From an uncultured Victivallales bacterium (GTDB lineage Bacteria; Verrucomicrobiota; Kiritimatiellia; UBA8416; JAIOPI01): a stretch of DNA of 64,000 bases. The DNA lies in assembly GCA_964635825.1 (NCBI GenBank), contig CAZWQJ010000001.1, positions 12,404 to 76,403 on the forward strand, written 5' to 3'. The position numbers and the translations under genes were made by a program. Of the stretch, positions 14,571 to 62,931 are shown in pieces (position 1 is the stretch's first letter; the number at the start of each line of letters is the position of its first letter). The notes under the pieces are model-generated. The model made no database searches and had not been told where the DNA came from. It saw nothing but the letters and a program-made list of their open reading frames with translations.

Positions 14571-14598
14571 ACCCGCAATCGTATCACTTTGGTATCAT
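14571..14598 (-). promoter_or_regulatory. Conserved upstream element, copy 1. Plus-strand sequence: acccgcaatcGTATCACTTTGGTATCAT.
   Basis: Lies 49-76 nt upstream of the SASA esterase gene start (14522), in the 14541-14629 intergenic region. Confidence 0.6.
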
Positions 14599-14629
14599 GC
14601 GCCGCAGACGCTCGGATCGCGGGCGCGCG

Positions 14630-17600
14630 TCACTGCAACCGTGCACTGCCGCGGAAGGCGCGTGGCCCCGGGCCATTGGTCACGAGAAGCAGGGGGAACC
14701 CGCTGGCGGGCACATTCGTCAAGCCTGGCAGGCCGCCCCAGCCGCCGGTGAGCAGGTTCGTGGTTTCCTCCAGACGGTAGAAGCGTGAGCGCCCTGCGTG
14801 GTACGTCGCGGTCGCAATGCGGGTGGGGAGCCGGATCCACGCCTGTTCATTAGACCATACCAGGTCGAGCCGGAGGAAGTCGGCCCCGTTCGTGGGATCG
14901 GTGCCGGCGGTGTACTCGGCCCCGTTGGCCAGACCGTCTCCATCCCAATCGTCGTTCGGATCCCCGGCCGGCGCGTTGGTGCTGCCGAAATAGGCGCGCT
15001 CCCAGTTGTCCGGCACCCCATCGCCATCGCCATCGTCAAGGGCAGGCACCCAGTCGGCCACGGTGCCGTACTGGGAGAAAGTGGCCGCATTCATCAGCAT
15101 GGCATACTCGGCCCGGCTCCAGGCGGCCGGGCGCACCACCGCGGAAAGCCTCAACTCATCGAGCCGGCCGGAGAAGGGGCTGCCCCCCCCCTGGCGGCGC
15201 CCCAGGACCGGCGCGAGTGCCGGGCGAAAGTCCGGCACATCGCCCAGTCGCCGGCGCGGGCCGTTGTCGACGCTCCCATACGCCACGCCGTTGCTGAGCA
15301 CGACCGTCACCAGTTGCCACCCATTGGTGCGGTAGGGGTCGATCGCCCAGTCGGCCGTGCCCAGGTTCGCCTGCCACTTGGCCACGCGTGGATTAATATT
15401 CATACTCACGTAGAAATTCATCCCCGTACTCTGCGCGCCGAACGGGGTGCCGCCGTATGTTTCCGCCGCCACGTTCGCCCAGAAGCTGAGGGTGAAGTGG
15501 TTGCGGGCTCCGACGTACCAGGCCAGCGGAACATGAGGATCGACGACGGCATTGGTGTCCGCGAACTGCAGTCCGCCCGCCACCAACCCCGCCGCCGCCA
15601 CCGCACCGGCGTTCGCCACCGCACCGTAGTAGCCCGAAGCATCGACCAGGTCCGGTTCCAGGTGCCAGACCCCGACGAAGTCATCCCGCCAGACTGAGCC
15701 ATCGGTGGTATAGGGCGGCGGCGAGGTGGCCGCCGGGTTTCCCCAGATCGCCCGCAGACAGGCGCCATTTGTGAGCAACGCCAGGCGCACCCAGAACTGC
15801 GAGAACCCATTCGTGTCCCAGCGTTGCGGCTCATAGACCAGCAGTCTTCCCGCATCATCCAGGAACCGCAGGCTGGCCCAACTGCCGCCGACGTCCGCGT
15901 ACGAGAAACCCGCCATGTTGGTACTCACCGACACCAGCACCGGGAACCCGGCAAGGTCGTCGGCCTCCGTGAATCCCGGCAGGCAGATCGACACCTGCCG
16001 GGTCCAGTTGGTGTACGCACTCGTCCGGAACGATCCCGTCGCCGGCGCCCAGGCCATCGGCGTCCCCCGGCGCGCAAAGGCGCGGTACCAGTAGGTCCAA
16101 TTCGGATTCAGCGGCCCCACCCTGGCGGAAAACACTCCCCCGCTTTGCGTGCCACACGTCTCCACATGCGCCCAGCGTTCGGCATTGGTGCCGCCATCTG
16201 CTTCACCCCAACACAGGCCCACATCGGCCACGCCGGCGCCCAGCAGGGTCCCGCGAAGCGTGGCCGCATCCGCGCTGAACTCCTCAACCGGCAGGTTGTC
16301 CACCGCCATGGCATCGATCCGCACCACGCCTGACGTGGCGACCCCGGACGCATCGCGCAGTTCCGCACGCAGCGCGAGCCGTGCCGGTGCTGTTAGCGCA
16401 ACCGAACAGGTGTAGGGCGCGGATGTGGCCGTGCCCAGGAGGTTGGAGCCGTCCAGGAAGGCAACCTGTTCCACCGGACCCGCCACCTGCGATTCATCCA
16501 GCCGCGCACGCAGGATCACCTCGGACGGCACGAAGTAAACCGCACCGGCACGGGGCTCGGACAGCGCCACCTTGGCGCCGGGCAGGCCCGGCGTGGGGAA
16601 AAGGGCCGCCAGCCAGTTGGCGGGGTCATTGCCGCTTTGTCCCGCCCACTGCCGTTGTAGCGACATGCCGGTACCATCCGCTTCCGCCGGCCAGGGATCG
16701 CGATCGAAGTAGAGGACCTCGTCCACGATGACCCAGGAGACGGCTTCGTTCTCCACGTCCGGCAACAGCGGGCGTTCGAGCGCCACGCGTTCCCCGTGGT
16801 TGCCGAGCTGCCCCTGCCAGGGGCCCAGAAGTCGGATCTGGCCGTTCGTGAGCCCGTGCTGCTGAAGGAACGCCCCGCAGGCCGCCGCGTCCGCCGCCGG
16901 GTCGAAACCCACCAGAACCAGCCGCTCCGCCGCCGCCATCACCAGGTTGCTCGGAAACGTGAACGTCACAGCCCCATCCAGCCGCCAGGGGCCCGCTTCC
17001 CCCATCAGAATCACCGCATTCGTTCGCGGGTTCAGCAGCTCGACGAATTCGTCCCGCGTATTATCGTCGGGTTTCGATACCGTGGGCGCAGGGTGGTACA
17101 TGAGCTCGTCGATGACGACATCCTGCAGCGGCAGCCCGTTGGCGCCGCCCGGCGTCCGAAGTTGCGCGTACCACCACGCCCCCCCATCGCCATGGCGCCC
17201 CAGCGAACACTCGTTCTCCTGCGCCTTGTAACGCACGCTGTCGGCCACGCGGTCCGCCGCGGTCCCGGGCAGGTGGGAGAGGTAGAGCGACTCCCCTCCC
17301 TTGTTCAGGCCGAAGCCGGCCGTGATCGGAGCGTGGAATCCGCTGACTTCATCGAACACGCGCCACTCGCCGCCATTCAACGCGGGCGCCGCGGGAAGGG
17401 CCCACTTCTTCAGGTTCGAGGCACTGTCGCTCAGGTACCAGTGCTCGAGGGACACGGGCGCCCCGCCCGCATGGTAGATCTCGATTTGATCGTTGGAATC
17501 GTATTCCGGATGCCCCGCATTCGTGTAGTCCGTGTGCGCGATGATCTCGTTGAGGACCACGTCGCGCGGGGGCGGCGGGTCGGGTTGGCCGGGAGATCCC

Positions 17601-20600
17601 CCGCGAAAGGCGCTCGCCCGCCAGTTGCCGCCGTAGTCCAGCCGGCCGTCGTCCTGGTGCGTCATGGCCAGCGGCACCAGCGAGTGCCCGGCCCCATCCA
17701 CGGACGCGGGCCAGCCACGCCCGTCGCCGTACGTGCAGTCGGCAACGACGGCCTCGTCGCCGCGGCTGACCAGGGTCAGTGAGTCGCCGGCGTTGGCCAG
17801 CGCGCCCGTGTAGACCCCGGCCACCAGCGCGGCGGCCCCGCCGTAGCGGTTGGTGAAGGCGGAGAGGCTGCGCACGAGCACGGCATAGCCATCCGGCGGC
17901 AGCACGGGTGTCGCGGATTCCCGGAAATCGAAGCTGATGCCGCCCATCAGCAGCAACCCGCTGAGGCTCGCGGCGGAGGCGCCGCCGTTGTGGAGCTCCA
18001 GGAATTCCGAGTCGCCGTCGGCCGGGGCGTACATGACCTCGCTGATCGAAAGCGCGCCACCATACGCATTGGTGTACCCAACATAGGTGACGGCATCCAC
18101 CACGACGCCCGCGCGGTTGCGTAATTCAAGCGCCTCGCCGCGCGGCGAAAGGCGTCCCTTGAAGTTGCCCTGCACATAGCGGTTCTCATTCGTGGTGGGA
18201 CTGACCGCACGGCGGCGAAATTCCCGCACCGATGGCGACACGAAGAGGCTCTGGCCGGGAGCCAGCACCGTGCCCGCGTAGAACGTGTGCGACACCCCGC
18301 CGCCCAGCGTCCACCCCGAAATGTCCAGGTCGTACGCATTCGTGTTGATCACTTCGACATACTGCTGATCCTCCGCGCCATTCCCCGGCAGGAACTCGAT
18401 GGCGCCGAAGCGCAGCCGCGCATCGGGCGGCTGGCTGTCGGGAATCTCGCCCCCATTCGCCACACTCAGCGTGGTGCCCAAGTAGTTCCGACGCCCCGGA
18501 AGGTACTGGTCGACGATCCGCACCACGCCCTGGCGCATCGTGTCCCCGTTTCCCCAGGTGCCCCACTTGGCCCGGTCGAGATCGGCATCCGAAATCCCGG
18601 GGTCCGGATCGATCTGCTCCGCCAGCGCCGCCAACCGGGGCTCGAAGTACAGGGCATTGGTGGGCGAGCCGGCCGGCTTCAGGTACTCATCCACCAGCGT
18701 GCGCACCCGCCGCATCACCATCGCCCGCAGCTCGGGATGCTGGTAGACCACCTGGTAGTAGGGGTTGTTCGCAGTTGCGTAGATGATGCTGCTCGCCGTG
18801 TAGATCGTATCGTCGAAGTAGCCGCCGGTCCAGACGTGCCCATACGTCAGGTCCACGTCCTGCGGCAGGATGGTCCAGATGCCGCCCCCATCCGTATCGC
18901 AGTAGAGGTAGTAATTCTTATGACCGTGGTCGGTGTTGTTCACGATCGCCTGCATGGCCAGGTAATGGACCGTGCGGGGCAACTCCGTGTGGTCGTACGC
19001 ATAGCGCATGGCGGCGGCACCGGCGGGATTCGACAGGCCGGCGATCAGGGCCTGCAGGTCGCTGTTGGCTTCATCCCGGCGGGTCTTCTTCTCCACGCCC
19101 ACCATTGCGGACGTCAGGCCGTTGTACAGCTTGTAGAGCGCCCCATCGGGGTCCAGCCCCACGCGGTCCAGGAACACGTCATCCGCGTCCTCCACCATGT
19201 CGGCCACGCTGAAGAAGGCCCCGTTCTGCTGGACCCGCACGGGAAACCCGAAATGCGCGGGGTGCCCCGAGTCCGCAAAGAAGCCGTAGGCCAGCGTGTT
19301 GCGGCACTTCGACTTGTCGGCCCAGTTGGTCAGCAGATCGATGTCCTTGGCGGGCTTGGCTCCTTCCCGGTACGCAAACCGTGCGCCTCGGTTGAAGTCG
19401 AAGTTGTAGCTGCCCTTGATGAAACCCAGCGTGCTTTGCCCGTGCTGGGTCACCTGCACGTTGTCGTAGAAGCGGTCCAGGAACCAGACACTGCAGCGGG
19501 TGCCCAGCGCGGTGTCGGCCGACGACGGGCTCTGAATGAACCAGTGAACCACCGGCAGCCGCGACACGATCGCCGTATCCAGCGCCACCGTCCCGCAGTA
19601 CTGCGGCGAATCGAACGGATCGAGATACGCCGGCAACCGCGTGGACTGGCCATGGCTGTCCACCGCCTCGAAGCGCCAGCGCAGCATCTGACCCGCAGCC
19701 ACGTTCGTCGTCGCCAGCGTTCCGGAGTAGACCCCGTCCCCGCCCGCCGCGTCGCCGTCCACCCCGCTGTCATTCAGGTTCAAAATCGTCTCTCCATCGA
19801 ACATCCGGCGCGAGCAGAGGCGTACGGCGCTCACCGGGTACAGCGTGGCCTCGACGCGCGCGGTCACCACAAGAGACGCGCCCGGCACAAAGGCGGGCGC
19901 ATAGTCTGTCACCGCCCGCAGGCCGGGACCGAGGACGGGAAGTCCGCCGCCATTGATCGATGCGGGTGTGGGTGTGGTGAGGTACGCGGGGGCAAAGGCG
20001 GGCGGATTGGTGCCGACATCGCCCGCCAGCACCGGCGCCATCAGAAGGTCCATGCTGTGCGGCGACACATTCAGGACCTGGATGGCCAGGATGTTGGTTC
20101 CCACCACCAACGGTCCGGAGGGGTTGGCAACCGGGAATATCTCCCATGCAGTCGCGGCGTGCGGTGCGGTCGCGTACGAGTCCCACGCGGGCGTGGTCGG
20201 CGCATTCGTGCGGGCCACCTCCGAGCCATTGATCCAGGCCACGAAGCCGTCGTTGTAGCGCGCCTGAACCTGGAGCGCGCTCACGCCGGACACGGCGTTG
20301 AGCACGAACGGCTGCCGCAGGTAGAGACTGGGCCCGGCCATCTGCGCGCTCACGTCGGTCGCAATGAACGGCTGCGCGTTGGTGGTGGAGTCGAACCCCA
20401 GCCCCGTCGCACCGGCCGACCAACCGCTGTCGTCGAATTCGGGCAGCCGCCAGGAGGTCCCCAGCGCGTCATCCGCGGGCGAGTGGTATCGCGCCGCGGC
20501 CCCCGCGGCGATCACCGGCTCGATGACCGGGTTCAGCACCAGCCCGTAGGCGATGTCCTCCGCCTGGGGGAGATAGGTCGGTGCATACCGCGTGGCGACC

Positions 20601-20983
20601 GTCGTGCCATCCGGTTCCACCAACGCCAGGAACTCGCCGCCGGCGTCGAGCTTGAAGTTCGTGTGCAGCTCGCGACCGGACACGGCGCGGTTCTTGTTGG
20701 AGGCAAACACGATCACGAAGCCCCCACCGGCAAGCGGCGTATCCGGAAACCGCCACTTGGTCAGGTTCCCGCCGGCATCCGTCAGGTACCACCCTGCCAG
20801 ATTCACGGCGCCGGTGGAGGTGTTCTGAATCTCAATCCAATCGGAGTAGGCGCCGTCCTCATCCTGAAGCGTGCTCCCGTTGGACGCCATGAATTCGCTC
20901 AGGACCACCTGCGCCGGCGATGCCGGCCCCAGGCTCAGCGCCAGCGCGGCCGACAAAAGCCAGCGGTGATGTGCCATGCTCAT
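14630..20983 (-). CDS. Giant 2117-aa secreted protein with at least five lamin-tail domains (LTD), a CotH kinase-like domain, a LamG/ConA-like domain, Ca-binding Asp-rich repeats and a C-terminal FYR-type module.
   Basis: Signal peptide MSMAHHRWLLSAALALSLGPASPA. Five LTD signatures (VVLSEFMASNGS...WIEIQNTS...LAGWYLTD, VVLNEIIAHTDY...IEIYHAG, VVIDELMYHP...FVELLNP, LSISEVMYAPADGDSEFLELHNGG, IEFLPGNGAEDQQYVEVINT). CotH-like block HGHKNYYLYCDTDGGGIWTILPQDVDLTYGHVW. LamG-like region. DDGDGDGVPDNWE...DDWDGDGLANGAEY repeats. RFYRLEE...W tail. Confidence 0.8.
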   Translation of the reverse strand: MSMAHHRWLLSAALALSLGPASPAQVVLSEFMASNGSTLQDEDGAYSDWIEIQNTSTGAVNLAGWYLTDAGGNLTKWRFPDTPLAGGGFVIVFASNKNRAVSGRELHTNFKLDAGGEFLALVEPDGTTVATRYAPTYLPQAEDIAYGLVLNPVIEPVIAAGAAARYHSPADDALGTSWRLPEFDDSGWSAGATGLGFDSTTNAQPFIATDVSAQMAGPSLYLRQPFVLNAVSGVSALQVQARYNDGFVAWINGSEVARTNAPTTPAWDSYATAPHAATAWEIFPVANPSGPLVVGTNILAIQVLNVSPHSMDLLMAPVLAGDVGTNPPAFAPAYLTTPTPASINGGGLPVLGPGLRAVTDYAPAFVPGASLVVTARVEATLYPVSAVRLCSRRMFDGETILNLNDSGVDGDAAGGDGVYSGTLATTNVAAGQMLRWRFEAVDSHGQSTRLPAYLDPFDSPQYCGTVALDTAIVSRLPVVHWFIQSPSSADTALGTRCSVWFLDRFYDNVQVTQHGQSTLGFIKGSYNFDFNRGARFAYREGAKPAKDIDLLTNWADKSKCRNTLAYGFFADSGHPAHFGFPVRVQQNGAFFSVADMVEDADDVFLDRVGLDPDGALYKLYNGLTSAMVGVEKKTRRDEANSDLQALIAGLSNPAGAAAMRYAYDHTELPRTVHYLAMQAIVNNTDHGHKNYYLYCDTDGGGIWTILPQDVDLTYGHVWTGGYFDDTIYTASSIIYATANNPYYQVVYQHPELRAMVMRRVRTLVDEYLKPAGSPTNALYFEPRLAALAEQIDPDPGISDADLDRAKWGTWGNGDTMRQGVVRIVDQYLPGRRNYLGTTLSVANGGEIPDSQPPDARLRFGAIEFLPGNGAEDQQYVEVINTNAYDLDISGWTLGGGVSHTFYAGTVLAPGQSLFVSPSVREFRRRAVSPTTNENRYVQGNFKGRLSPRGEALELRNRAGVVVDAVTYVGYTNAYGGALSISEVMYAPADGDSEFLELHNGGASAASLSGLLLMGGISFDFRESATPVLPPDGYAVLVRSLSAFTNRYGGAAALVAGVYTGALANAGDSLTLVSRGDEAVVADCTYGDGRGWPASVDGAGHSLVPLAMTHQDDGRLDYGGNWRASAFRGGSPGQPDPPPPRDVVLNEIIAHTDYTNAGHPEYDSNDQIEIYHAGGAPVSLEHWYLSDSASNLKKWALPAAPALNGGEWRVFDEVSGFHAPITAGFGLNKGGESLYLSHLPGTAADRVADSVRYKAQENECSLGRHGDGGAWWYAQLRTPGGANGLPLQDVVIDELMYHPAPTVSKPDDNTRDEFVELLNPRTNAVILMGEAGPWRLDGAVTFTFPSNLVMAAAERLVLVGFDPAADAAACGAFLQQHGLTNGQIRLLGPWQGQLGNHGERVALERPLLPDVENEAVSWVIVDEVLYFDRDPWPAEADGTGMSLQRQWAGQSGNDPANWLAALFPTPGLPGAKVALSEPRAGAVYFVPSEVILRARLDESQVAGPVEQVAFLDGSNLLGTATSAPYTCSVALTAPARLALRAELRDASGVATSGVVRIDAMAVDNLPVEEFSADAATLRGTLLGAGVADVGLCWGEADGGTNAERWAHVETCGTQSGGVFSARVGPLNPNWTYWYRAFARRGTPMAWAPATGSFRTSAYTNWTRQVSICLPGFTEADDLAGFPVLVSVSTNMAGFSYADVGGSWASLRFLDDAGRLLVYEPQRWDTNGFSQFWVRLALLTNGACLRAIWGNPAATSPPPYTTDGSVWRDDFVGVWHLEPDLVDASGYYGAVANAGAVAAAGLVAGGLQFADTNAVVDPHVPLAWYVGARNHFTLSFWANVAAETYGGTPFGAQSTGMNFYVSMNINPRVAKWQANLGTADWAIDPYRTNGWQLVTVVLSNGVAYGSVDNGPRRRLGDVPDFRPALAPVLGRRQGGGSPFSGRLDELRLSAVVRPAAWSRAEYAMLMNAATFSQYGTVADWVPALDDGDGDGVPDNWERAYFGSTNAPAGDPNDDWDGDGLANGAEYTAGTDPTNGADFLRLDLVWSNEQAWIRLPTRIATATYHAGRSRFYRLEETTNLLTGGWGGLPGLTNVPASGFPLLLVTNGPGPRAFRGSARLQ

Positions 20984-21077
20984 GCCGCGTTCCCCACCCT
21001 TCTGCTATTGTAGCAAGCGGACGGAGAAGATGCCACGCCGGCACGGCGCGCACGCCGTTCGCACTCGGACACGGCGG

Positions 21078-22592: not shown

Positions 22593-22596
22593 GGCG

Positions 22597-23901
22597 TTAG
22601 TCCCCTGGTTGTGGCGATGGCCGCAGATAGTACTGATTTCCCCAGCAAAAGTCTTCCTTGAGCAGAAACCCGTATCCGCCGTGGAAGTGTCCGCCTCCAT
22701 CGAGATACTGCCCCACGGCCTTTTGCAGAGAGGTTCGGCGCGGCACATCGCGGATGTCGGTGACGCCCCAGCCGAAGACGCGCGCGTAGATCTGCTGGTT
22801 GTCGCCCTGAAGTCCCGGGTACAGATACAGCTCGCGCTGCAGACGAACAATGTTGGACTCCGGCGCCAGCATCGTCTGGAGGCGCGAGTCCAGGAGCCAC
22901 GATGCCGTCCAGAAACCGCGGAAGCGGAGGTCCGGGAAGTACCGCGGGAACACCTCCAGCGCGCGGCGGAACGAGTCCCCGCAATCCTCGAACGCCAGGC
23001 GCCCGCCCGCCGAGACATGGAAGGTCAGCATGGGGTCGTCGGGTGCCAATGCCGGCTCCCACTCGTCGAGCGCGAGCGACCGCCGCCGCCGGCTCGCCAG
23101 CCCCGTGGCGTGCACCGGATGGCCGACGACGGCGCGATCCGTCATGTCCAGTGTGCTGGTCCACGCTCCATCCGGGTTGCCGCACCGCTCGCACCAGGCA
23201 TGGCCATCGGAGCCATACCGGATGCCCGCTTCCGCAAGTGCCAGCACCTCGCGCCGCTCCTTGTGGCGGTAGGCGCGCAGCCGCCCGGGGAACGTGCTGG
23301 CGCTGAACTGCAGCCGGCCGAGTTGCAGCAGCTTCCCCTGCCAGTGCTTGCACAACCAGCGCGCAATCCACGGCGTGATGCCCCAGCGCTGAAAACGGTT
23401 GTAGTAGAGATCCGTCTCCATCCACAGCCGCAGATCCGAAACCGTGTCGCGGACGATGTCGGCGGGAATGCCGAGGCGGCGGTATGTCGCCTTCATTTCC
23501 GGCACGACGGCGAGCATGACGAGGACGTTGAGCAGCCCCGCCTCCGGCCCCAGGTAGTCATCCAGCGGCGGCCACTGTTCCTCCCACGACTGGACCAGCG
23601 TGGGGTCGTGCAGCATCCGATGCCGGCAGTACCAGAAGAAGGCGACCAGCTCCGCGTCCGCCGCCACACGACCGGCGAACGCGACCAGTTCCTGAATCAT
23701 AGGTTCGGTCAGGAACACATCCTGTCCGGCTTGCGACACGTAAGCCGGCGCAAGAAAGGCCAACCCCTGTGCGGGAGGATCGTCCATGGCCGCGTCCCAG
23801 GCCGTACAAAGCGCCCTGCCGGCATCGGAAATCCGCAGCTTGCCCGCGACCTGCTCCAGATCAGTGAAGCAGCAGTCCTTCGCATCCACGATCGCGTCCA
23901 T
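22597..23901 (-). CDS. Conserved hypothetical cytoplasmic protein (434 aa, function unknown). Its stop is 4 nt upstream of araA.
   Basis: Long ORF with non-repetitive composition. It lies immediately downstream of one copy of the conserved upstream element (23962-23978). No catalytic motif recognised by eye. Confidence 0.6.
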
Positions 23902-23961
23902 GAATCTCCACGTCGGGGTTCAGCGTGTGTCACGGCGAATCGTAGTGCCCGCCACCGCCAA

Positions 23962-23978
23962 TGGCAACGCGATCACAT
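23962..23978 (-). promoter_or_regulatory. Conserved upstream element, copy 5 (most degenerate): GATCACATTGATATCAT.
   Basis: Lies 61-77 nt upstream of the start (23901) of the hypothetical-araA operon, in the region divergent from the RAYT gene. Confidence 0.45.
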
Positions 23979-24203
23979 TGATATCATTCCCATCCGGACA
24001 CCAACTTACCGGCCACATACAGTCGCCCATCCATGCACCCCGCGCGACCCGAATTGCGTGCGCCATGGACGGTCAAGATGCATCTGTTATGCTTGCGCAA
24101 CGTTCTTGACAGATCACCGGTGGAAGAATCAGCAGACGTTGGCCAAGGTCAAGGGGATCGTTCTGGTGAGCCACGCGCAAGTTGCGGAAGCCGAGGTGGG
24201 CCC

Positions 24204-25187
24204 ATGAATGCACCATCCTCCATATCCTTGGCGCCACGGCATGCCGCGGCGCCACTGAAAGCACGCAAACACTTGCGCATGCAGGGCTGGGATTTCACCA
24301 GCCCCGGCTGGTATTTCCTCACCATCTGCACCAAGAGCATGCGCTCCGAGTTCGGCACTGTTGTAAACGGCCGCATGACCCTGAACGACGCCGGCCGCCT
24401 TGCCGACCAGTTCTGGCGCGAGATCCATGAGCACTTCCCGCGCGCCGTCGTGGACGAACACGTCGTAATGCCCAACCATGTGCATGGCTTGCTGCACCTC
24501 ACGCCAGACGGCTGGACCATCAATGGCCTCACGGCACGCCGTGAAGCGTTCGGCAGACCGGTCGCCGGCTCCGTGCCCACCATCGTGCGCTCGTACAAAG
24601 GCGCCGTCACGCGTGCGCTGGGCTGCAACCCCTGGCATCGCCGATTCTACGAGGTCCGGGCGCGCGACGAGCGGGCGCGGTTCAACATCCGCAACTACAT
24701 CCGCCGCAACCCTGAGAATTTCGATGCCGTCATGAATGGAGGCGAACCGCAATGCCTGGGCAACAAGGCGTTGTTGAACATGCCCAAGGTCGGGTTCCTG
24801 GCCTCGCGCGGGCAGGCAAGTCTGCATGGCAACCTGCCAATCAAACCCGGCGAGGCCATTGTTTCGGGCTTTCTCTCGCCTATGGAGCGCGCCGTATTCC
24901 GGGCCGGGCTGGCCCACAAACGCCCCATGATTTGGATCTTGCCGGCAGGGCTCGACGCCATCCATGGCAGCACGGCATGCCGTGCTGCTATCGAGGAGGG
25001 CTGGTTGCTTGTGCTCTCACCCTTCGACATTGCCCTCGAAGCCCCCAACGCTCGCCGCGCGGTGTGGTGCAACCAGTACGTGCTCGCTCACTGCAACCGC
25101 GCGGTGGTGGGCCACCTCAACCCCGACGGCATGCTCGCCTGCATCCTCCACGAGGCCGACCCCAACACAGAGGTCACCCACCTATGA
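24204..25187 (+). CDS. REP-associated tyrosine transposase-like HuH (Y1) domain fused to a C-terminal DprA/SMF-like Rossmann (SLOG) domain.
   Basis: N-terminal half shows RAYT/IS200-like blocks: GWDFTSPGWYFLTICT, HuH motif MPNHVHGLLHL, SYKGAVTRALG, WHRRFYEVRARDE...NYIRRNPENF. C-terminal ~150 aa align to the DprA Rossmann core: VGFLASRGQASLHG (~vGsRkaSxyG), EAIVSGFLSPMERAVFRAGLA...IWILPAGLDAIHG (~vvSGlAxGIDaaAHxgAL...tiAVLGtGLDviYP), then ...NARRAVWCNQYVL...VVGHLNPDGMLACILHEA. SD-like GAGGTGGG lies upstream of the ATG at 24204. It is the only complete + strand gene. Confidence 0.75.
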   Translation: MNAPSSISLAPRHAAAPLKARKHLRMQGWDFTSPGWYFLTICTKSMRSEFGTVVNGRMTLNDAGRLADQFWREIHEHFPRAVVDEHVVMPNHVHGLLHLTPDGWTINGLTARREAFGRPVAGSVPTIVRSYKGAVTRALGCNPWHRRFYEVRARDERARFNIRNYIRRNPENFDAVMNGGEPQCLGNKALLNMPKVGFLASRGQASLHGNLPIKPGEAIVSGFLSPMERAVFRAGLAHKRPMIWILPAGLDAIHGSTACRAAIEEGWLLVLSPFDIALEAPNARRAVWCNQYVLAHCNRAVVGHLNPDGMLACILHEADPNTEVTHL

Positions 25188-31674: not shown

Positions 31675-33249
31675 TCACGGCGCACGACCGGTTCGGCCCG
31701 GAACCGCCCCGCGGAATTCCACGGCGCCCATGTCACGACCGCGCAACTGTGGAACCGGCGTGCCAAAGAAGTCGGTGGCGCCGGGATCCACACCGAGGCA
31801 CGTGCGGAGGTTAAGCCCGGCATCGATCACCGGAGAACCACGCTGCGGGTGGACGGCGCTGGGGACTGCCCCGCGGGCCGCTTGCAGCCGAGGATCGGCG
31901 CTGACTCCGAGGCCCTTGCCATCGAGCGTTTCCTGGCCGGTGCCCCGCCGCCAGGCGTTAAGGCTGTCATAGCCGGCGATGGCGCAGGCCCCGCCGCCGG
32001 CCCAATAGGTATTATTCTGAAAGCGCACCTGCGTCGCCGCCGGCGAGCCCTCCAGGACCGGCCTGCCGGCCGCCGTCACGAACACGTTGTTCCCGAGCCA
32101 CAGGTTCTCGATCGTTTCGTACTCGTGGCACCAGACGGCGGGGCTGACGCGGCTCAGGATGGTGTTGTGGTAGACGTGGCTGTCCCGTAGCGGGGCAGAG
32201 CCGGCGGGCGAGTACACATGCAGCCCGCCCATCTTGCCGCCGATGCCGTCGTTCTCGCTGATGCAGTAGCGAAACGTGTTGTTGGTCCATGCGCCGGTCG
32301 TGCCGTCCGTACTCAGCAGGAAGCCCGCGCCGAAGTTGTCGTGCGCATAGCAGTACTGAATCCGCGAGTCGCAGGTGTTCAAGTCGAGATCGAAACCGTC
32401 GCCGTCCATGTGGATGGCCTGGGTCCGATACGCCTCGCAGTGCTGAACGACAATTCGCCGGCTGTTGTAAACCATAAAGCCCACCGGCCCCGCCCGCGCC
32501 GCCCCCTGGCCTCCGTTGTCATGCGCCACGCAGCGCTCGATCAAACCGTCTACGGCATGCGAGAGCGAAACGCCGAACCCGGAGGGGCGAGCCTCCAGCT
32601 CCGGGTCGCCAAGGTTGTAGGCGAAGACGCAGTCGCGCAACACGATGTTGCTGATGCCTCCGACGGCGTCGGCGTACGTTTCGATGCCGGCATTCCGGTT
32701 CTGGCTGGCGGCGCACTTCTCGATCAACACGTCGTCGATCCCGTTCGCGGCGCCCCCCGCGGCGTACAGGTGAAACCCCTGGCGGAATCCCGACACATCG
32801 AGGTTGCGGAACGTCAGCCCGGCATAGCGACCTGCATCGGCGCCGAGGGCGATCCCTTCCTTGTCCGTCGCTCGCGCCCCGCTGCCCACCACCACGAGAT
32901 TCTCGATGATGAGGTGGCCCGCGTTGTAGATCAACAGCCCCGGCTGCGAGGCGTCCGCTTGCCTCACGGTGGCACGCCTGACCGGGTCCGAGGTCAGGGT
33001 GACCGGTCGCCGCACCTCCCCGCCGGTCCCCATGTACACATTCTCGTTGAACGTGGCGCCCGCCTGCAGATGGACCGTGTCTCCCGGAGCGGCGCGGCTC
33101 AGCGCCCCGGAGATGCTTCGCCACGGCCGTCCGGCACTGCCGGTGTTCGAATCGACGCCATCGGGGCTGACGTAGTAGTCAGCACCAACGGCCGGGATCG
33201 CCACGAGCAACAACAACCGTGGAAGCACGTGCTCCATCCAGCTCCCCAT
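31675..33249 (-). CDS. Parallel beta-helix repeat protein (paralog of 5439..7121).
   Basis: Start MGSWMEHVLPRLLLLVAIPAVGADYYVSPDG (signal peptide). Blocks CVAHDNGGQGAARAGPVGFM, DGDGFDLD and IQYCYAHDNFGAGFLL. Confidence 0.75.
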   Translation of the reverse strand: MGSWMEHVLPRLLLLVAIPAVGADYYVSPDGVDSNTGSAGRPWRSISGALSRAAPGDTVHLQAGATFNENVYMGTGGEVRRPVTLTSDPVRRATVRQADASQPGLLIYNAGHLIIENLVVVGSGARATDKEGIALGADAGRYAGLTFRNLDVSGFRQGFHLYAAGGAANGIDDVLIEKCAASQNRNAGIETYADAVGGISNIVLRDCVFAYNLGDPELEARPSGFGVSLSHAVDGLIERCVAHDNGGQGAARAGPVGFMVYNSRRIVVQHCEAYRTQAIHMDGDGFDLDLNTCDSRIQYCYAHDNFGAGFLLSTDGTTGAWTNNTFRYCISENDGIGGKMGGLHVYSPAGSAPLRDSHVYHNTILSRVSPAVWCHEYETIENLWLGNNVFVTAAGRPVLEGSPAATQVRFQNNTYWAGGGACAIAGYDSLNAWRRGTGQETLDGKGLGVSADPRLQAARGAVPSAVHPQRGSPVIDAGLNLRTCLGVDPGATDFFGTPVPQLRGRDMGAVEFRGAVPGRTGRAP

Positions 33250-33397
33250 GCGAACGGCCTCCGTCGCCGGCGACTCTACTTCGCCGTCGCGCTGGCCTGG
33301 TTCGAGTTCGGGCTCTCGCCGCCCGCGTTGACTATGGCCACGTCCTCCCATATCGCCAACAATCCGGGCTCCAGTTTACCGCGCGCGGTCACCCCCT

Positions 33398-33421
33398 GCA
33401 AAACGATCACTGTGGTATCAC
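33398..33421 (-). promoter_or_regulatory. Conserved upstream element, copy 2: CAAAACGATCACTGTGGTATCAC.
   Basis: Lies immediately after the stop of 33424..34716 and ~150 nt upstream of the beta-helix gene start (33249). Shares the extended flank ACCCCCTgCAAAAC with copy 3. Confidence 0.55.
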
Positions 33422-50030: not shown

Positions 50031-50137
50031 CGCAAGCCTTCTCCATTCCTTCGCGTCCCGTACGCCCCATCCCTGCACAACAACGGACCGCCCCGGAACG
50101 GCGATACATGAAATCTACCGCAAGCCGGCCACCCCCT

Positions 50138-50160
50138 CAAAACTATCAGTTTGGTATCAT
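50138..50160 (-). promoter_or_regulatory. Conserved upstream element, copy 3: CAAAACTATCAGTTTGGTATCAT.
   Basis: Overlaps the stop codon of 50160..51308. Lies upstream of the PATR operon 48145..49866 and 41065..48129. Confidence 0.6.
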
Positions 50161-51308: not shown

Positions 51309-51318
51309 GTCGAATTCC

Positions 51319-57018: not shown

Positions 57019-59930
57019 CGTGCCCGTGAACTCATTCGCGCCCGAGTCGCAGGCGTTGCCATAAACGTCCTTCGCCGTGATGCTCGTCAGCGCAAACGGC
57101 GTCCCCGCCGTGGCCTAGGCGACGGGATTCGGCGCGATCGTGAACTGGCTGACCGGCCCTGGCCGGATCAGGCCGATCGTCACCGACCCCGTGTGCTCCA
57201 CCGGCGTCGCGCCGTCGCTGACCGTGACATGCAGGCTCATCCCCGCCACAGTAGGTGTCACGCTGGCATTGCACACGCCGGCGAGGAACAGCGGCGAGGT
57301 GCCGGTCACGCCCGCGTCACCGCCGAACACGACCGTCAGGCCTGTGTAGTCGGTCACCGTCGCGTTGCTCGCGTTCTTGGCCGTGATTGTGATGGCAATG
57401 GGCGTCCCGGCCGTCTGCGGCGACGCGATCGCGTCGATGTCGAAATGATCCACCGCCGGCACAAGCGTGATCACGCATTCGTCCGCGCCCACGGCCGTGC
57501 CCACCGCCGTGCCGCCCAGAGTGGCCGTGACCGTCGCGCTGCCCGCCCCCACCGACGACGGCGCCGTCCACGTCGCCGTGTAGGTTCCGTCGCCGTGATC
57601 GGTCGTCGCGCCCATCGATCCCGCCGTCGCGTCGAAGACCACCGTGTCGCCGCCGCTGCTGCGCGGGTTGCCGTCGGCGTCGCGCGCCTGCACGGTCACC
57701 ACCTGCGTGATGGTGCCGTCCGCCGCCTTCGTCGCCGTGGCCGGGCTGAGCGTCGAATGCGCGGCCTCCGCGGCACCGGCGAGATCCAGCGTGATCGTGC
57801 CCGCGGCGGTGTTGTAATGCAGCGTCGCCTGGTACGTTCCGATTACGGTCATCGTGTGGAACGTCCCTCCGACGCCGCCGCTGCCGTGCGCCGACGCGTC
57901 CACAATCGTCGCCCCCGTGCATCCGCTGCTGAGCCCGGTGGTGTCGATCACCAGGTCCACGTTGCCGCAGGCAAACGTCGCGCCGCTGTTGCTCAGCACC
58001 ACCTTGTCCGGCGTGCTCGCCGGCGCGCGGATCTTCAGCGTGGCGTAAGCACCAAAGGACGGCGAGGTGGAACTCGCGAGTGTCAGCGTCGCGGACGCAC
58101 CGGCAAGCGATGGCTGCATCGTGCCCCCGGCGTTCACCGTCACGTCGTCCATGTAGGTCCCGCTGCCACCTAGGGTGCCGCCGTCGCGCACCGTCAGCGG
58201 CCCGTTGTAGTAGCTGCCGGCGTTGAACAGGATCGCGCCTTGATTGATCCAGAATCCGTTGTAGTAATCGTAACCGCTCGGCGCGCCGCCCGAGAGCACC
58301 ACCGTGCCGGGGCCCGTCTTCACATAGTGGTGCTGGGCGTTGTCGAGCGCGCTTTCAATTTCCAGCACATTCGCCGTGTTCCACTGCTGCAGGTACACCG
58401 CGCGCTGGTAGCCCGCGGAGAGCGTCGCACCGGCGATCTTGCTCAAGTAGTTCCCCACCGCCGGCGTCACCAGAATGCCGCCCACCACGGCGGCATCGCC
58501 GGCGCCCAACGTGCAGGTCCCGGTCAGCGTCAGGGTGTAGGCTCCCGCGCTGTTGAACCGCAGCGTGTTGGGATGCGCCGCGCCGATCGTCTGGCTGCTG
58601 ACGATGTCGGCGTTCTTGTTGTTGTAGTTCGCGGCGGTATCGCCACCGCTGCTGGACGGGTAGTAGGTCGCCAGCGCGGTGACGGGGGTGTCGCCTGCCG
58701 AGGACGCGGTCACCGCCCAGTCCGCTCCCGCCACCGTGGCCCAGCCGCCGAGGATGTTGTAGGCGTTGTTCGCGGTGTCGCTGTCCGCGATGCCGGCCGC
58801 GCCAACGTCCACCGTGGCGTAACCGCTTTCGGTCAGCGCATTCAGCCTCAGCACGCTGCCGCCGCCCGTGCGCGTCACCGCGCAAGCCCCACCGCTGACC
58901 GTCACCCCGTTGACCGCCTCCGTGTGCGATCCGCCACTGAGGTCCAGCGTGGCCCGCGTCAGCGTCAAGGCGGAGCCGGACGCCAGCTTGGCATTGTTCT
59001 GGCCGGTGTAGTCCAACCGCAGCGTGCCCGCGTTGACCGCCGCCGCCCCGCTGAACGTGTTCGCGCCCGCCAGCACGAGCGTGCCCGCGCCCGCCTTGGT
59101 CAAGCCGGCCGCCCCCCCCACCGCCGCGTTGACGGTCACCGCTTTCGTCCCGCCCAACCCGCCCACCGTGATCGTGGGCGTCGTCCCTGCCAGCGTGATG
59201 ATGTTGGCCGCGTTCCCGTTGTCGTCCAGCGTCCACCCCGCCGCCGTGCCCGTGGCCGTGTCGCCGAACGCCACACTGTTGATCGTCAGCGGAAAGTCGA
59301 GGTGCACCGTGTTGTCCCCCGTCAGATCCAGCGTGCTGAAGTTCGCCGTCCGCGTGGACCCGTACGCCACCATACCGCCGCTCCAGTTGCCAGGCGTGCC
59401 CCAGTTGCCGCCGCTGGTCGACTGCGTCCACGTCCCGTTATTGGAAGCCGGCACGGCCGCCGCCGTGAACGTCACGGGACTGCCGCTCAGCCCCGCCGCC
59501 GTCGCCGTCACCGTGTAGGTCCCCGCCACGTTGCCCAGTGTCAGCGTGCTCGACGCCTGCCCGCTGCCGGCCGTCGTCGGGCCGGTGGCGCTCAAGCCTT
59601 GACCGGACGCGCCGCCCGGGACCGCGCCAATCGCGAAGGTCACGGTCGTGCCGCTGACCGGGTTCCCGTAGCCATCCGTCACCGTCACCACAAACGGGCT
59701 CGCCAGCGCCGCGCTCAGGCTTCCGCTCTGGTTGTTCCCCGACGTGTAGGCGATGGCCGCCGCCGTGGTCGCCGAGACCGTCACGGACAACCGGTCGCTG
59801 CCACTGGAACTGATCGAACCGTCCGAGACACTGATCGTCGCCGATTCGGCCTTGTACAGCGTCATCACCCCGTTGTTGCCACTGGAGACCGTGGCCACGC
59901 CGCTGCCGAACGTGATCGGCGTCGCCGTTT
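51319..59930 (-). repeat. Three tandem ~2.9-kb (about 970-codon) repeat units inside the giant PATR gene. Units are approximately 57115-59930, 54202-57114 and 51319-54201.
   Basis: Protein segments such as AGLTKAGAGTLVLAGANTFSGAAAVNAGTLRLDY..., GGWATVAGADWAVTASSAGDTPVTALATYYPS... and PGGASGQ.LSA..PTTG.NGQASS.LTLG recur three times with ~80-90% identity. Antisense shadow ORFs recur with a 2913-2919 nt offset. Confidence 0.75.
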
Positions 59931-62790
59931 GGAATGCGACCACCGCGCCACCGCTATCCTTGACCGTCGGATCCGTCACCGGGTTGGACGAACTGCCGGC
60001 GCCCGAGAACGTCAGGTTCTTCGACCCGGCATAGGCCGGATCCGTGTTGCCATAGGGATCTTTCGCCGTGATCGTCAGGTTCTGGCCAACCCCGGCCGTT
60101 TGCGTGCCGCTGCCCGTGATCGCCAGTTTGACCGCCGTCGCCGGGCCGACCGTCAGGCTCAGCCCCGAGGCGCCCGTGCCGCTGGAACTCGATTTACCGC
60201 CGTTGTCCGTCAGATGCACCGTGACCGGCCCTTCCGCCTTCTTCGGCACCAACGCCCCGCCGGCCGTGCACACGCCATCCAGGAACGTGAGCGTCTCCAC
60301 CGTGCCGAAATTCTGCGCCGCCCCGTTCTTGTCCGTCACGGTCGGATGGCTCCCGTCCGGTGAATCCGCCAGCCCGCTGAAGGTGACGTTCACGTCGCCG
60401 TCGTAATCCATCGTGTTGCCATCGCCACTCAGCGCGGTGATGGTCAGGCTCTGGCTGGCGCCCGCGGTCTGCGTGGCGCTGCCCTCGATCTTGTAGGCGC
60501 TCGGACCGGTACTGACCGTCAGGTTCACGGACCCACCGCTGACCGCGATGATCGCGGTCCCGCCGGCGGCGATCCCCGATCCCGTCACATTCACCGTGTA
60601 CGACGGCGACCCCGCCTGGTTGATCGTCCCGCCCGCCACCTCGATCAGCCGGTACGTCCCACTGCCCAGCGGCGTGCCGCCCGCGTTGTTGACCGTAAAG
60701 GCGTTGTTGTTCAGCGTAAGCGCACCCTGCGAGATGCAGAGCGAGGGATGCGTGGTGTCGCCGCTGAACCCGGTCGGCGTGAACTTCAGGTTGACCGGCC
60801 GGCTGCCCAGGCTGACGGTCGTGTTCCCTTTGATCGTCGCGGCGGTGGTCCCGGCGCTGGTGCCGGTGCCTCGCGCGTCCAGCGTGGCGCTGGTTCCAAG
60901 CGTGTAAGTGGCCGCCGCTGCGGACACATCCAGGGTGCCGCCCGCCTCAATTCGGACATCCGACCCCGCCGGCAGCGCGCAGCTCGCGCCCGAGAGCGCC
61001 AGCGTCCCGGAACTCAGCGTCGTCGTCCCGCTGTAGGCCTCGGTCCCGTTATAGCTCAGTGTCAGCGTCCCGCTGCCCAGCTTCGTCAGCCCACCGGACT
61101 GAGTGGACGTCAGTTGGGTGGCGAACGTAATGCTCTCGCCCGCCGTGTCGATCTTGATGGCACTCGCGCTGGTGCCCGAGGCAATCCGCGATGACGGATC
61201 CCACGCCGCGCTGGCCGCACTGAACTGCAGCGTGCCGCCTCCGAACACGATATTGCCGCTCGCGCCTAGGGGGCCATCGGTCGTGCCGTTCTGCGCCCGT
61301 CCCGCATTGAGCACCCCATCATTGATCGTCGTGCCGCCCGTGTACGTACTCGCGCCGGACAGCGTCCATGTGCCGCTGCCGGACTTGATCACCGCGGTCT
61401 TGTTGCCGCTGGAGTTGTTGACAATCGCCGCGTTGATCTCGCCCGTGCCCGCCGTCGAGCCCTTCAGCGTCAAATCCTTGCTCCCGGCGCCCCCCGCCGT
61501 AAACGCGCTCGTGAATTTCAGCAGCCCCGAGCCGGACTGATCCAGCGTCGCGCTTCCGCTCGTGCCCGCCAGGTTGATCACCCGGTCGCTCGTCTCGCCC
61601 GCCCCCGTGTACACCAGCGTCCCCGCCGTCGTGGAGTTGCCGAGCGCAATCGTGCCGTTCCCAGAGGTGGTTGGCTTCCCAAGACTGCTGCTGGTGTTGG
61701 GACTAAGGCTGCCGCTGGTGATGTAGTTCAGCGACGCCACGCTCAGCGTGCCCTCGTTGACCTTCGTGGGCCCGGTGTAAACGTTGGCGCCCGACAAGGT
61801 CCACGTGCCGCTGCCGCTCTTGGTGATGCCGCTGCCGGAGGACCCGGCGCCGATCGCACCGCTGATTTCGCCATACCCCGTGCCGGTTAGGGCGATGTGT
61901 ATCGTGTTGCCGTACGAGTAGGAAACCGCGCCCGTGAACTTCAGCGGCGAACCGGATGTCGTGGTGCCCGATGCCTCAATGCCGGCGGCGGCCGCACTCA
62001 GATATCCCCCGATCTTCAGCAGCCGGTCGCTCGTTTCCCCCGCACCGGTGTACTTCAGAAGGCCTGCCGCCGTCCCGCCGGAGGAACCAATGTTGATCGT
62101 CCCATTTGCCGAACTCGTCGGGTGACCAAGGTTGCTGCTCGCACTCCCACTCACGCTGTTGACCGTAGTCACGCTCAGCGTCGCCGCGCTCGACAGGGAT
62201 GTGCCGCCGGAGACCGTCACCGGTCCGTCAAACGTGTTCGCGCCGGACATGACCGTCGTTGCGCTGGACCCACCTACCGTCACGCCCCGCCCCGACGTCC
62301 CCCCGTCGCTGATCGTCCCCCCCAACGTCAGCGTCCCGCTGCTGACCGTGAACGTCCGCGTCGCCGACAGGATCATGTCGACGTTGATGTTCTCCGCCGT
62401 GATTCCCGTGCCGACGGTGATGTTGCCGCCGAGCGTGATGCGGTTGCCGGAGATCGTGTACGAGGCGGCGCTGTTGTTGAACGCGATGGCCGTGGCGCTC
62501 GCTAAGTTGATGTCGGCGGTCAGGTTGTTGTTGAGGCTGGTCCCGCTCGAGCCGGCCGCGCCGAAAACCAGGTTGTCGCCACCCACCGGCGCCGTGCCGC
62601 CCCAGTTGGCGCCGGTGTTCCAGTTGACATCGTTGTTGCCGCTCCAGGTCTTGGCGGCCGCCAGCGCCTCGCCCGCCGTCAGTAGCGGCAGCGCCACCAG
62701 CAGGGCCAGCACCAAAACGCCACCCCTCGACCGCATGACCGGACACCGTGCCGCGTCATGGGCCTTGACCCAATCGTTGCGTGCTTGCAT
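57115..62790 (-). CDS. N-terminal 1891 codons of a giant PATR surface-protein gene, terminated by an in-frame TAG at 57115-57117.
   Basis: Signal peptide MRSRGGVLVLALLVALPLLTAGEALAAAKTWSGNNDVNWNTGANW. An alternative ATG at 62736 is likely the true start. PATR repeats throughout. The last ~940 aa form repeat unit 1 of the 2.9-kb tandem repeat. Confidence 0.75.
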   Translation of the reverse strand: MQARNDWVKAHDAARCPVMRSRGGVLVLALLVALPLLTAGEALAAAKTWSGNNDVNWNTGANWGGTAPVGGDNLVFGAAGSSGTSLNNNLTADINLASATAIAFNNSAASYTISGNRITLGGNITVGTGITAENINVDMILSATRTFTVSSGTLTLGGTISDGGTSGRGVTVGGSSATTVMSGANTFDGPVTVSGGTSLSSAATLSVTTVNSVSGSASSNLGHPTSSANGTINIGSSGGTAAGLLKYTGAGETSDRLLKIGGYLSAAAAGIEASGTTTSGSPLKFTGAVSYSYGNTIHIALTGTGYGEISGAIGAGSSGSGITKSGSGTWTLSGANVYTGPTKVNEGTLSVASLNYITSGSLSPNTSSSLGKPTTSGNGTIALGNSTTAGTLVYTGAGETSDRVINLAGTSGSATLDQSGSGLLKFTSAFTAGGAGSKDLTLKGSTAGTGEINAAIVNNSSGNKTAVIKSGSGTWTLSGASTYTGGTTINDGVLNAGRAQNGTTDGPLGASGNIVFGGGTLQFSAASAAWDPSSRIASGTSASAIKIDTAGESITFATQLTSTQSGGLTKLGSGTLTLSYNGTEAYSGTTTLSSGTLALSGASCALPAGSDVRIEAGGTLDVSAAAATYTLGTSATLDARGTGTSAGTTAATIKGNTTVSLGSRPVNLKFTPTGFSGDTTHPSLCISQGALTLNNNAFTVNNAGGTPLGSGTYRLIEVAGGTINQAGSPSYTVNVTGSGIAAGGTAIIAVSGGSVNLTVSTGPSAYKIEGSATQTAGASQSLTITALSGDGNTMDYDGDVNVTFSGLADSPDGSHPTVTDKNGAAQNFGTVETLTFLDGVCTAGGALVPKKAEGPVTVHLTDNGGKSSSSGTGASGLSLTVGPATAVKLAITGSGTQTAGVGQNLTITAKDPYGNTDPAYAGSKNLTFSGAGSSSNPVTDPTVKDSGGAVVAFQTATPITFGSGVATVSSGNNGVMTLYKAESATISVSDGSISSSGSDRLSVTVSATTAAAIAYTSGNNQSGSLSAALASPFVVTVTDGYGNPVSGTTVTFAIGAVPGGASGQGLSATGPTTAGSGQASSTLTLGNVAGTYTVTATAAGLSGSPVTFTAAAVPASNNGTWTQSTSGGNWGTPGNWSGGMVAYGSTRTANFSTLDLTGDNTVHLDFPLTINSVAFGDTATGTAAGWTLDDNGNAANIITLAGTTPTITVGGLGGTKAVTVNAAVGGAAGLTKAGAGTLVLAGANTFSGAAAVNAGTLRLDYTGQNNAKLASGSALTLTRATLDLSGGSHTEAVNGVTVSGGACAVTRTGGGSVLRLNALTESGYATVDVGAAGIADSDTANNAYNILGGWATVAGADWAVTASSAGDTPVTALATYYPSSSGGDTAANYNNKNADIVSSQTIGAAHPNTLRFNSAGAYTLTLTGTCTLGAGDAAVVGGILVTPAVGNYLSKIAGATLSAGYQRAVYLQQWNTANVLEIESALDNAQHHYVKTGPGTVVLSGGAPSGYDYYNGFWINQGAILFNAGSYYNGPLTVRDGGTLGGSGTYMDDVTVNAGGTMQPSLAGASATLTLASSTSPSFGAYATLKIRAPASTPDKVVLSNSGATFACGNVDLVIDTTGLSSGCTGATIVDASAHGSGGVGGTFHTMTVIGTYQATLHYNTAAGTITLDLAGAAEAAHSTLSPATATKAADGTITQVVTVQARDADGNPRSSGGDTVVFDATAGSMGATTDHGDGTYTATWTAPSSVGAGSATVTATLGGTAVGTAVGADECVITLVPAVDHFDIDAIASPQTAGTPIAITITAKNASNATVTDYTGLTVVFGGDAGVTGTSPLFLAGVCNASVTPTVAGMSLHVTVSDGATPVEHTGSVTIGLIRPGPVSQFTIAPNPVA

Positions 62791-62908
62791 GCACCCCTCC
62801 CGACAGGCTACCCCGGCTTGCCGCTACGACCGCTTGCGCAGATTCCCCCGAATCCTCATGCGCCCCCAATACATCATCGGAATGGTACCGGAGCGTGTCC
62901 AGACCTCG

Positions 62909-62931
62909 CAAAACTATCACTTTGGTATCAT
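62909..62931 (-). promoter_or_regulatory. Conserved upstream element, copy 4: CAAAACTATCACTTTGGTATCAT.
   Basis: Lies in the divergent intergenic region between the giant PATR gene (start 62790/62736) and the GntR-type regulator gene (start 62986). Confidence 0.6.

Follow-up and report, generated by a model that had tools for sequence, protein, structure and literature searches.

AraR, the regulator of the arabinose regulon of Bacillus subtilis, joins a GntR-type winged helix to a LacI/GalR-type sugar-binding domain, acts at several promoters of a sugar and polysaccharide regulon that includes araA, and is encoded beside its targets (PMC3592433, PMC4494728). A system with similar predicted features is described here in 64,000 nucleotides of DNA from an uncultured Victivallales bacterium (GCA_964635825.1, contig CAZWQJ010000001.1, positions 12,404 to 76,403; this whole stretch is called the window). 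Five copies of a short tandem repeat precede genes for glycan-degrading enzymes and giant PATR (autotransporter-associated repeat) proteins, and a regulator gene, W, is encoded divergently from the fifth copy. The element is best read as a candidate operator of W that would control five promoters, to which we assign a probability of roughly 0.75. The likeness to AraR has limits. The AraR operator is a 16-bp palindrome, ATTTGTACGTACAAAT, with inverted TNG cores (PMC3592433), whereas the element of the window is a direct repeat without dyad symmetry. AraR sites are variable in position and overlap the promoter, while those described here lie at a fixed place just upstream of the -35 hexamer. In addition, the C-terminal domain of W has no match to the Pfam Peripla_BP models, and its winged helix scores below the GntR gathering threshold.

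Directly repeated operators built from TGGTAT-like units are known elsewhere in the GntR family, namely TGGTATAW for NanR, TGGTATT for NagQ and ATACCA for GabR (PMC4494728). W has, as modelled, a GntR-like winged helix as these regulators do, and the element shares their directly repeated TGGTAT/ATACCA-like units, its distal repeat reading TGGTATCA on the plus strand and TGATACCA on the minus strand. The proximal repeat, however, is not TGGTAT, and these regulators carry C-terminal domains of the FadR, HutC or MocR type instead of the LacI fold of W. The NanR operator consists of three adjacent hexamers and that of GabR has 34 bp between its repeats, so that repeat number and spacing are also unlike those seen here.

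Two further systems invite comparison. The first-pass annotation of this DNA had likened the element to a Pho box, and in geometry the likeness stands: two direct repeats with an 11-bp period lie on one face of the DNA near the -35 position. The sequence does not follow, as the Pho box consensus is CTGTCAT-N4-CTGTCAY and the core repeats here are TGATAY and TGATMS, with CTGTCAT matched by none of the copies. Position differs as well: the Pho box replaces the -35 hexamer and lies about 10 bp upstream of the -10, while a gap of 2 bp separates these repeats from a TTGnnn hexamer downstream. Nor is the gene set related to phosphate, and the linked protein is a one-component GntR-like regulator, with no linked response regulator. 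LysR-type systems resemble the arrangement of W-family genes, in that the regulator is divergent from its target and the site lies against the target -35 and overlaps the 5' region of the regulator gene, which predicts autoregulation together with target control. The protein family is unrelated, however, and the element has no T-N11-A dyad.

A tandem repeat at five predicted promoters

Coordinates are positions within the window, and the core is given as it reads on the minus strand, on which nearly all of the genes are encoded. With up to two mismatches allowed, the 22-nt core TGATAYCANNNTGATNNNNTTG is matched five times in the window and at no other place in it, against 0.03 expected, a number reached by none of the shuffles; the plus-strand pattern GATCASWTTGRTATCA, at the same tolerance, gives exactly five matches in the window against 0.06 expected. 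The cores lie at 14576-14597, 23965-23986, 33399-33420, 50138-50159 and 62909-62930, and no weaker extra copies were found by a position weight matrix (PWM) scan of the window. In all five, TGATA[C/T] is followed by TGAT[A/C][C/G] at an 11-bp period (the TGATAC-N5-TGATAG type). The first-pass annotation had described five copies in a single orientation with two direct repeats of this period, and on both points it was right; its copy 2, given as 23962-23978, is about 9 nt out of place and leaves out the distal repeat. It had also placed every copy upstream of the start of a minus-strand unit, which agrees with the present analysis. All copies are intergenic and 5' of minus-strand genes, and the distances from core to ATG, with start codons revised from gene calls and signal peptides, are about 53, 63, 149, 271 and 172 nt for copies 1 to 5. 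Copies 3 and 4 start 0-3 nt from the stop codon of the upstream gene. Likeness among the copies is limited to about 28 nt, and no Rfam family is matched by the element. Its hairpin potential is nil (fold z-scores from -0.6 to +0.9). A mobile repeat with terminal inverted repeats had been named in advance as the finding that would speak against an operator, and no such inverted repeats were found around the copies.

The annotation missed a pair of hexamers, -35 and -10, that lies at fixed spacing downstream of every copy. Each copy ends in TTG, which begins a TTGnnn hexamer followed by a spacer of 17-18 bp and then TAnnnT. This combination, TTGnnn-N17/18-TAnnnT, occurs five times on the entire minus strand of the window, exactly at the five copies, the frequency of TAnnnT being 0.0018 per position; the plus strand has a single, intragenic occurrence. 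Because the combination is present at each copy and only there on the minus strand, the five sites are read as predicted sigma-70-type promoters with promoter-proximal repeats upstream. The two repeats fall at about -54 to -49 and -43 to -38 relative to the predicted start, and the proximal one ends 2 bp from the -35. A flank CCCCCT(C/G)CAAAAC that had been attributed to three copies corresponds to the -35 hexamer (TTG) and the start of the spacer; CAAAAC is indeed present in three copies, CCCCCT in only two (copies 3 and 4).

All five predicted promoters are on the minus strand. Promoter 1 (14550-14597) has the repeats TGATAC and TGATAC at 14581-14597, the -35 TTGCGG at 14573-14578, a 17-bp spacer and the -10 TAGCAT at 14550-14555. 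Promoter 2 (23939-23986) combines TGATAT and TGATCG (23970-23986) with TTGCCA (23962-23967) and, after 17 bp, TACGAT (23939-23944). At promoter 3 (33373-33420), TGATAC and TGATCG (33404-33420) precede TTGCAG (33396-33401), again a 17-bp spacer, and TAAACT (33373-33378). The repeats of promoter 4 (50112-50159), TGATAC and TGATAG at 50143-50159, stand directly behind the TGA stop codon of the upstream gene and are followed by TTGAGG (50135-50140), 17 bp and TAGATT (50112-50117). Promoter 5 (62882-62930) has TGATAC and TGATAG (62914-62930), TTGCGA (62906-62911), an 18-bp spacer and TACCAT (62882-62887). Promoters 1 and 2 have leaders of 25-35 nt that end in GGAGG or GGAGA ahead of the ATG. The core hexamers match the consensus at 7-9 of 12 positions; a strict sigma-70 scan, in which their scores lie below 9/12, does not call these promoters.

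Other ways of reading the sites were considered and rejected. For site 5 the strict scan proposed TGGACA-17-GATGAT, and TTGCGA-18-TACCAT was kept as the pair in register with the other sites. A sigma-54 promoter was set aside, as there is no GG/GC at -24/-12, and a Bacteroidetes-type -33/-7 promoter likewise, as TAnnTTTG fits two copies only. An extracytoplasmic-function (ECF) type promoter has the wrong spacing, and the proximal repeat does not suit an extended -10, since the key A is replaced by C in copies 2 and 3.

Several further features of these regions were observed. The spacers of promoters 1, 3 and 4 (14556-14572, 33379-33395 and 50118-50134, minus strand) have a common GGGGGTG(A/G)CCG-like sequence, which suggests that these three promoters go back to a cassette of about 45 nt that was copied inside the island. 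The plus-strand reading of the distal repeat is TGGTATCAT at copy 5 (62922-62930) and TGATATCAT at copy 2 (23978-23986), both near-consensus extended -10 elements directed at W and at another plus-strand gene, J. If these are functional, W binding would block promoters toward W and J; the same reading at copies 1, 3 and 4 would yield antisense transcripts. The leader of promoter 4 is about 220 nt long and begins, just 3' of the predicted -10, with a GC-rich hairpin followed by CCGTTGTTGT (50087-50105, minus strand). This hairpin could be an attenuator; terminator-like matches in this region number 9, against 9.1 expected from shuffles.

Outside the window and its relatives the pattern is matched only sporadically. 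An exact-pattern scan with TGATACCAMASTGATMNNNTTG gave 17 scattered single matches in a genome collection of 596 billion bases and 43 single matches in Joint Genome Institute (JGI) metagenomes; in both sets the matches appear to be chance occurrences or unrelated elements, and none is a relative. Loci with homologues of the NAT_N gene of the window at about 70% identity (L062 and L063; GC 57-60%; LacI regulators) have no motif; they come from different organisms and are uninformative. In nine loci of about 40% GC (L001, L007, L010, L020, L022, L030, L033, L039 and L042) the scan pattern falls in a conserved coding start, ATGAAATCTGATACCAAACTGATAAATTTGCTCCGCACAGCG (MKSDTKLINLLRTAIEST...), those from the genome collection being Desulfobacula. 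These matches are a protein-coding coincidence and no regulatory element. An unrelated conserved tandem repeat, gTGATACCAcaGTGATACCAttg, was met directly 5' of small open reading frames that start with MAMTLRLT and resemble ribbon-helix-helix antitoxins. Its high-GC loci are L003 83-104 (Austwickia) and L011 5123-5144 (Leifsonia), both Actinobacteria, and the metagenome contigs L026, L027, L028, L029, L031, L035 and L058. The repeat probably serves a toxin-antitoxin or ribbon-helix-helix family as an operator for autoregulation.

Regulator W and the repeats beside its homologues

W (62986-64000, plus strand) is the sole regulator in the window. Its gene is cut off by the window end; a full-length close homologue, P0086, has 376 aa and is 98% identical. 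W alone matches Pfam GntR at E 0.0098 (16 bits, against a gathering cut-off of 27 bits), and NCBIfam gives weak GntR-family matches only. The family does better, with Pfam GntR reached at E <= 0.01 by 44 of 60 members (best 9e-7), while the Peripla_BP models of Pfam match none of the 60. In the AlphaFold2 model of W, with a predicted local distance difference test (pLDDT) score of 77, three helices and a beta-hairpin wing are followed by a linker of low pLDDT (residues 93-120) and an alpha/beta domain. The top Foldseek matches of the latter are CelR, CcpA, MalR, LacI, Cra and the AraR effector domain 3tb6, at E 1e-9 to 1e-7 and probability 1.0. As modelled, W is thus at the fold level an N-terminal GntR-like winged helix joined to a C-terminal sugar-binding domain of the LacI/periplasmic-binding-protein type I fold, that is, an AraR-like chimera. 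A word-based search returned six relatives only. An exhaustive profile search returned 733 representatives, of which 265 have E <= 1e-30 and are nearly all full-length at about 370 aa, and the subfamily comprises about 265-730 clusters at 50% identity.

Evidence for a link between W and the repeat comes from these homologues. A PWM built from the five window sites only was applied to the loci of W homologues, those of the 98% identical close relatives among them, with 285,814 control positions. In three loci, L074, L076 and L071, its top match lies in the intergenic DNA on the divergent side of the W homologue and points away from that gene. The homologue in L074 is 56% identical to W and faces the site TGATCCCAAACTGATCTATTTGCAA-18-TAAGAT, with a PWM score of 25.5; that in L076 (42% identity) faces TGAACACAAAATGATGCTTTTGTGG-18-TATGGT, scoring 18.3; and that in L071 (34% identity) faces TGATACGATTCTGTTTGGTTTGCAA, scoring 18.0. 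With the five window sites and the L066 orthologue set aside, 0 of the 285,814 control positions exceed the score of L071. In L078, with a homologue of 30% identity, an exact TTCTGA-N5-TTCTGA adjoins TTGGCA-16-TATCCT with a gap 1 nt longer.

L071 holds a second site, TTCTGTTCGGC-TTCTGTATGGA-TTGAGG-17-TAATGT, which was detected before its divergent gene was recognised as a W-family paralogue (hhalign probability 100, E 3e-65) and therefore independently confirms the rule that ties the repeat to the W family. The two paralogues of this locus lie tail-to-tail (6773-9064), each facing its own tandem-repeat promoter. L071 also holds a classical regulator with GntR and Peripla_BP_3 domains (13237-14328), as well as N_methyl/SBP_bac_10 (DUF1559-like) genes, a kind typical of the Planctomycetes-Verrucomicrobia group.

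In total, a repeat of 11-bp period abutting a -35-like hexamer and divergent from a W-family gene is found in four other lineages and at six genes, W included. Nine of ten independent sites place it at the same spacing and in the same orientation with respect to the -35 (5/5 in the window, 4/5 in the other lineages), a count from which the close-relative orthologues L066 and L068 are left out. The repeat also changes with the protein. Recognition helices reading PLPTVLRVF or PMSIVLRVF are found with TGAT(A/C)CCAAA, HQTTVVRVF or HQTAAVRIF with TGAACAC...TGATG, and PVPSVSLAY with TTCTGT. Judged from these sequences, the repeat co-varies with the recognition helix of the W-family protein and does not follow phylogeny alone. 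In the relatives the operator begins 0-30 nt from the regulator start codon. Transcription of the regulator would consequently start in or beyond the operator, and autoregulation within the W family is likely.

Conservation was also seen at closer range. Close relatives with proteins 90-98% identical keep sites 3 and 5 and show substitutions only at non-core positions, although they are too similar for footprinting. The whole of promoter 3 is conserved in L066, from 11279, and promoter 5 in L068-L070; at L068 7647 a sigma-70-like TTGGTG-17-TACGAT without repeats stands 38 nt 5' of a 770-aa gene. Behind the conserved promoter 3, L066 has an extra gene at 11364-13508, which encodes a 714-aa Pel9A-like beta-helix/fn3 protein and separates the promoter from the orthologue of the window's first gene of this unit (window about 33250-33400). 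The genes downstream of this promoter therefore vary between strains.

Candidate operator of W and alternative explanations

The direct evidence in this analysis consists of the motif, the promoter geometry, the fold of W, and the finding that W-family genes occur and vary together with the repeat; from these we infer binding, the sign of regulation and the effector. Two DNA-binding domains of W would each occupy one TGATA(C/G) repeat in a head-to-tail arrangement. Their distance of 11 bp puts both repeats on one face of the DNA, directly against the -35 of five predicted sigma-70-type promoters. A sugar derived from the substrate of the island would alter the occupancy of W. The result would be co-regulation of five units, about 62 kb together, with esterases, pectate-lyase-like beta-helix proteins, GH2, araA, an ABC transporter and giant PATR proteins. 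For AraR it is L-arabinose that relieves repression; the presence of araA in unit 2 is only suggestive of such a link here. The regulon-operator interpretation of the first-pass annotation thus gains support from motif statistics, promoter geometry and the linkage to the W family. Of the two binders it had proposed, the GntR/AraR-like regulator encoded at 62986 is the one that its fold and the matching repeats of its homologues point to.

Several considerations weigh against this explanation. LacI-type dimers are usually two-fold symmetric, and head-to-tail docking as modelled would need a flexible linker (residues 93-120). The -35 and -10 hexamers are pattern matches only, and the roughly 85 kb of this lineage that were examined contain no housekeeping promoters. 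The spacer likeness of promoters 1, 3 and 4 could mean that the fixed geometry in the window results in part from cassette copying. The L071 and L078 sites have diverged, one of them with the 1-nt longer gap. Finally, AraR itself binds a palindrome (PMC3592433).

If W is the binder, the sign of its action has to be weighed. The alternative that survives best keeps W on the same element as a sugar-relieved repressor that would block RNA polymerase at the adjacent -35. AraR and most GntR-family sugar regulators repress (PMC3592433, PMC4494728), the proximal repeat is close enough to the -35 for a bound protein to occlude sigma region 4, and the core hexamers, at 7-9/12, are reasonable alone. Repressor operators, however, usually vary in position, whereas nine of the ten sites described above are fixed, which is typical of activators that touch RNA polymerase, and the site does not overlap the region from -35 to +1. 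Repression is accordingly a serious contender with less than even odds. Activation by contact with RNA polymerase is mildly favoured over it, because spacing and orientation to the -35 are fixed, as expected of a factor touching the polymerase.

A different binder is improbable. A reading in which W is only a neighbour, and an OmpR/PhoB-family response regulator from another part of the genome uses the repeats as a Pho-box-like site, would account for the hexamer-N5-hexamer repeat of 11-bp period adjoining the -35, a geometry that is classical for this family. It fits poorly with a sequence of TGATAC in place of CTGTCAT and with a site upstream of an intact TTG -35 instead of in its place. Pfam detects no response-regulator or pst/pho genes in the window, which also leaves the other binder proposed at first pass, an OmpR/PhoB-type regulator, without a gene there. 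The repeat also tracks W-family genes over five lineages and co-varies with their recognition helix, which an unlinked regulator would not explain. W is therefore likely to be the binder, in preference to a PhoB-type response regulator.

Less probable still is a lineage-specific general promoter part, similar to an upstream promoter (UP) element, that would be contacted by the alpha subunit of RNA polymerase with no dedicated regulator. The repeats, at about -54 to -38, do occupy the proximal and distal UP subsite positions (-38 to -59), and every recognisable sigma-70-like minus-strand promoter of the window has the element. In contrast to the A/T-rich, degenerate and factor-independent UP consensus of strong housekeeping promoters, however, the element has conserved G and C positions, and its information content exceeds that of the -35 and -10 hexamers beside it. 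The nearby promoter at L068 7647 lacks it, as do the plus-strand genes J and W, and the motif is absent from the loci of more distant relatives and, chance-like matches aside, from the genome and JGI metagenome scans. Repeats that follow the adjacent W-family protein, and not phylogeny alone, also argue against such a part. The remaining explanation, a dispersed mobile repeat of the repetitive extragenic palindromic (REP) kind, perhaps mobilised by J, or a copied promoter cassette without its own binder, is the least credible of all: the weak transposase likeness of J (E 7.6e-9, below the curated cut-off) and the extra spacer likeness among promoters 1, 3 and 4 speak for it, but the element has no hairpin potential, terminal inverted repeats or Rfam match, its likeness ends after about 28 nt, it keeps one orientation and a fixed relation to gene starts, and the same architecture adjoins W homologues in other lineages with unrelated spacers.

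Transcription units and the possible control of glycan foraging

The window has a GC content of 64-70%, its genes are almost all on the minus strand, and the element copies head five inferred minus-strand transcription units. Pfam identifies among the enzymes SASA, GDSL and CE4 esterases or deacetylases, Pel9A-like beta-helix proteins, GH2 and L-arabinose isomerase, and among the other proteins NAT_N/GNAT_C, an LTD/CotH giant and a sugar ABC transporter. Six PATR proteins of up to 2354 aa are encoded; a search with one of them, protein K, found distant homologues only. The wealth of PATR genes, together with a single distant homologue labelled Verrucomicrobiota, points to that phylum as the probable source. 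Unit 1, behind promoter 1, has two SASA esterase genes, a beta-helix gene, a TPR gene and ABC transporter genes, with its first ATG at 14522 behind GGAGG. Unit 2 holds the NAT_N/GNAT_C gene (ATG 23901), araA and the LTD/CotH giant protein, and unit 3 two Pel9A-like beta-helix genes and a 1340-aa PATR protein, with a likely start at 33249 or 33237. Unit 4 comprises a PATR gene (likely start 49866), the 2354-aa PATR giant, GH2, DUF4886, CE4 deacetylases, a beta-helix gene and a GDSL esterase; what looks like a gap of 262 nt at 37.5-37.8 kb is occupied by the DUF4886 gene. Unit 5, divergent from W, encodes two PATR giants of about 1900 aa and a 382-aa PATR protein (likely start 62736).

The hypothetical gene J (24204-25187, plus strand) is divergent from copy 2 and has no Pfam match. 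Between residues 35 and 170 its product is similar to REP-associated tyrosine transposases (HVHGLL and YIRRNP motifs; NCBIfam NF047646), and to this part is joined a C-terminal half of about 150 aa that has no annotation.

To our knowledge, almost nothing is known of how large glycan-foraging loci are controlled in uncultured Verrucomicrobia-like polysaccharide degraders, and we know of no member of the W subfamily that has been studied. What is new here is an uncharacterised subfamily of GntR-like regulators with a LacI fold and putative direct-repeat operators at a fixed promoter geometry. We propose, tentatively and at less than even odds, that its members are one-component activators that would, in the manner of response regulators, bind head-to-tail to a tandem repeat whose distance from the -35 is constant, and that W would be a master switch coupling giant PATR proteins and glycan-degrading enzymes over 62 kb. 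No principle of gene regulation is overturned, and to a specialist the finding would be useful and unsurprising. It provides a concrete candidate pair of regulator and operator, a 376-aa protein and a 17-bp tandem site, with five promoters predicted at single-base resolution. The result also suggests that giant, adhesin-like PATR proteins are co-regulated with carbohydrate-active enzymes and a sugar transporter. A GntR-like subfamily of a few hundred members is thereby defined, the operators of which should be predictable from the divergent promoter beside each gene, and such prediction would be useful for regulon reconstruction in metagenome-assembled genomes.

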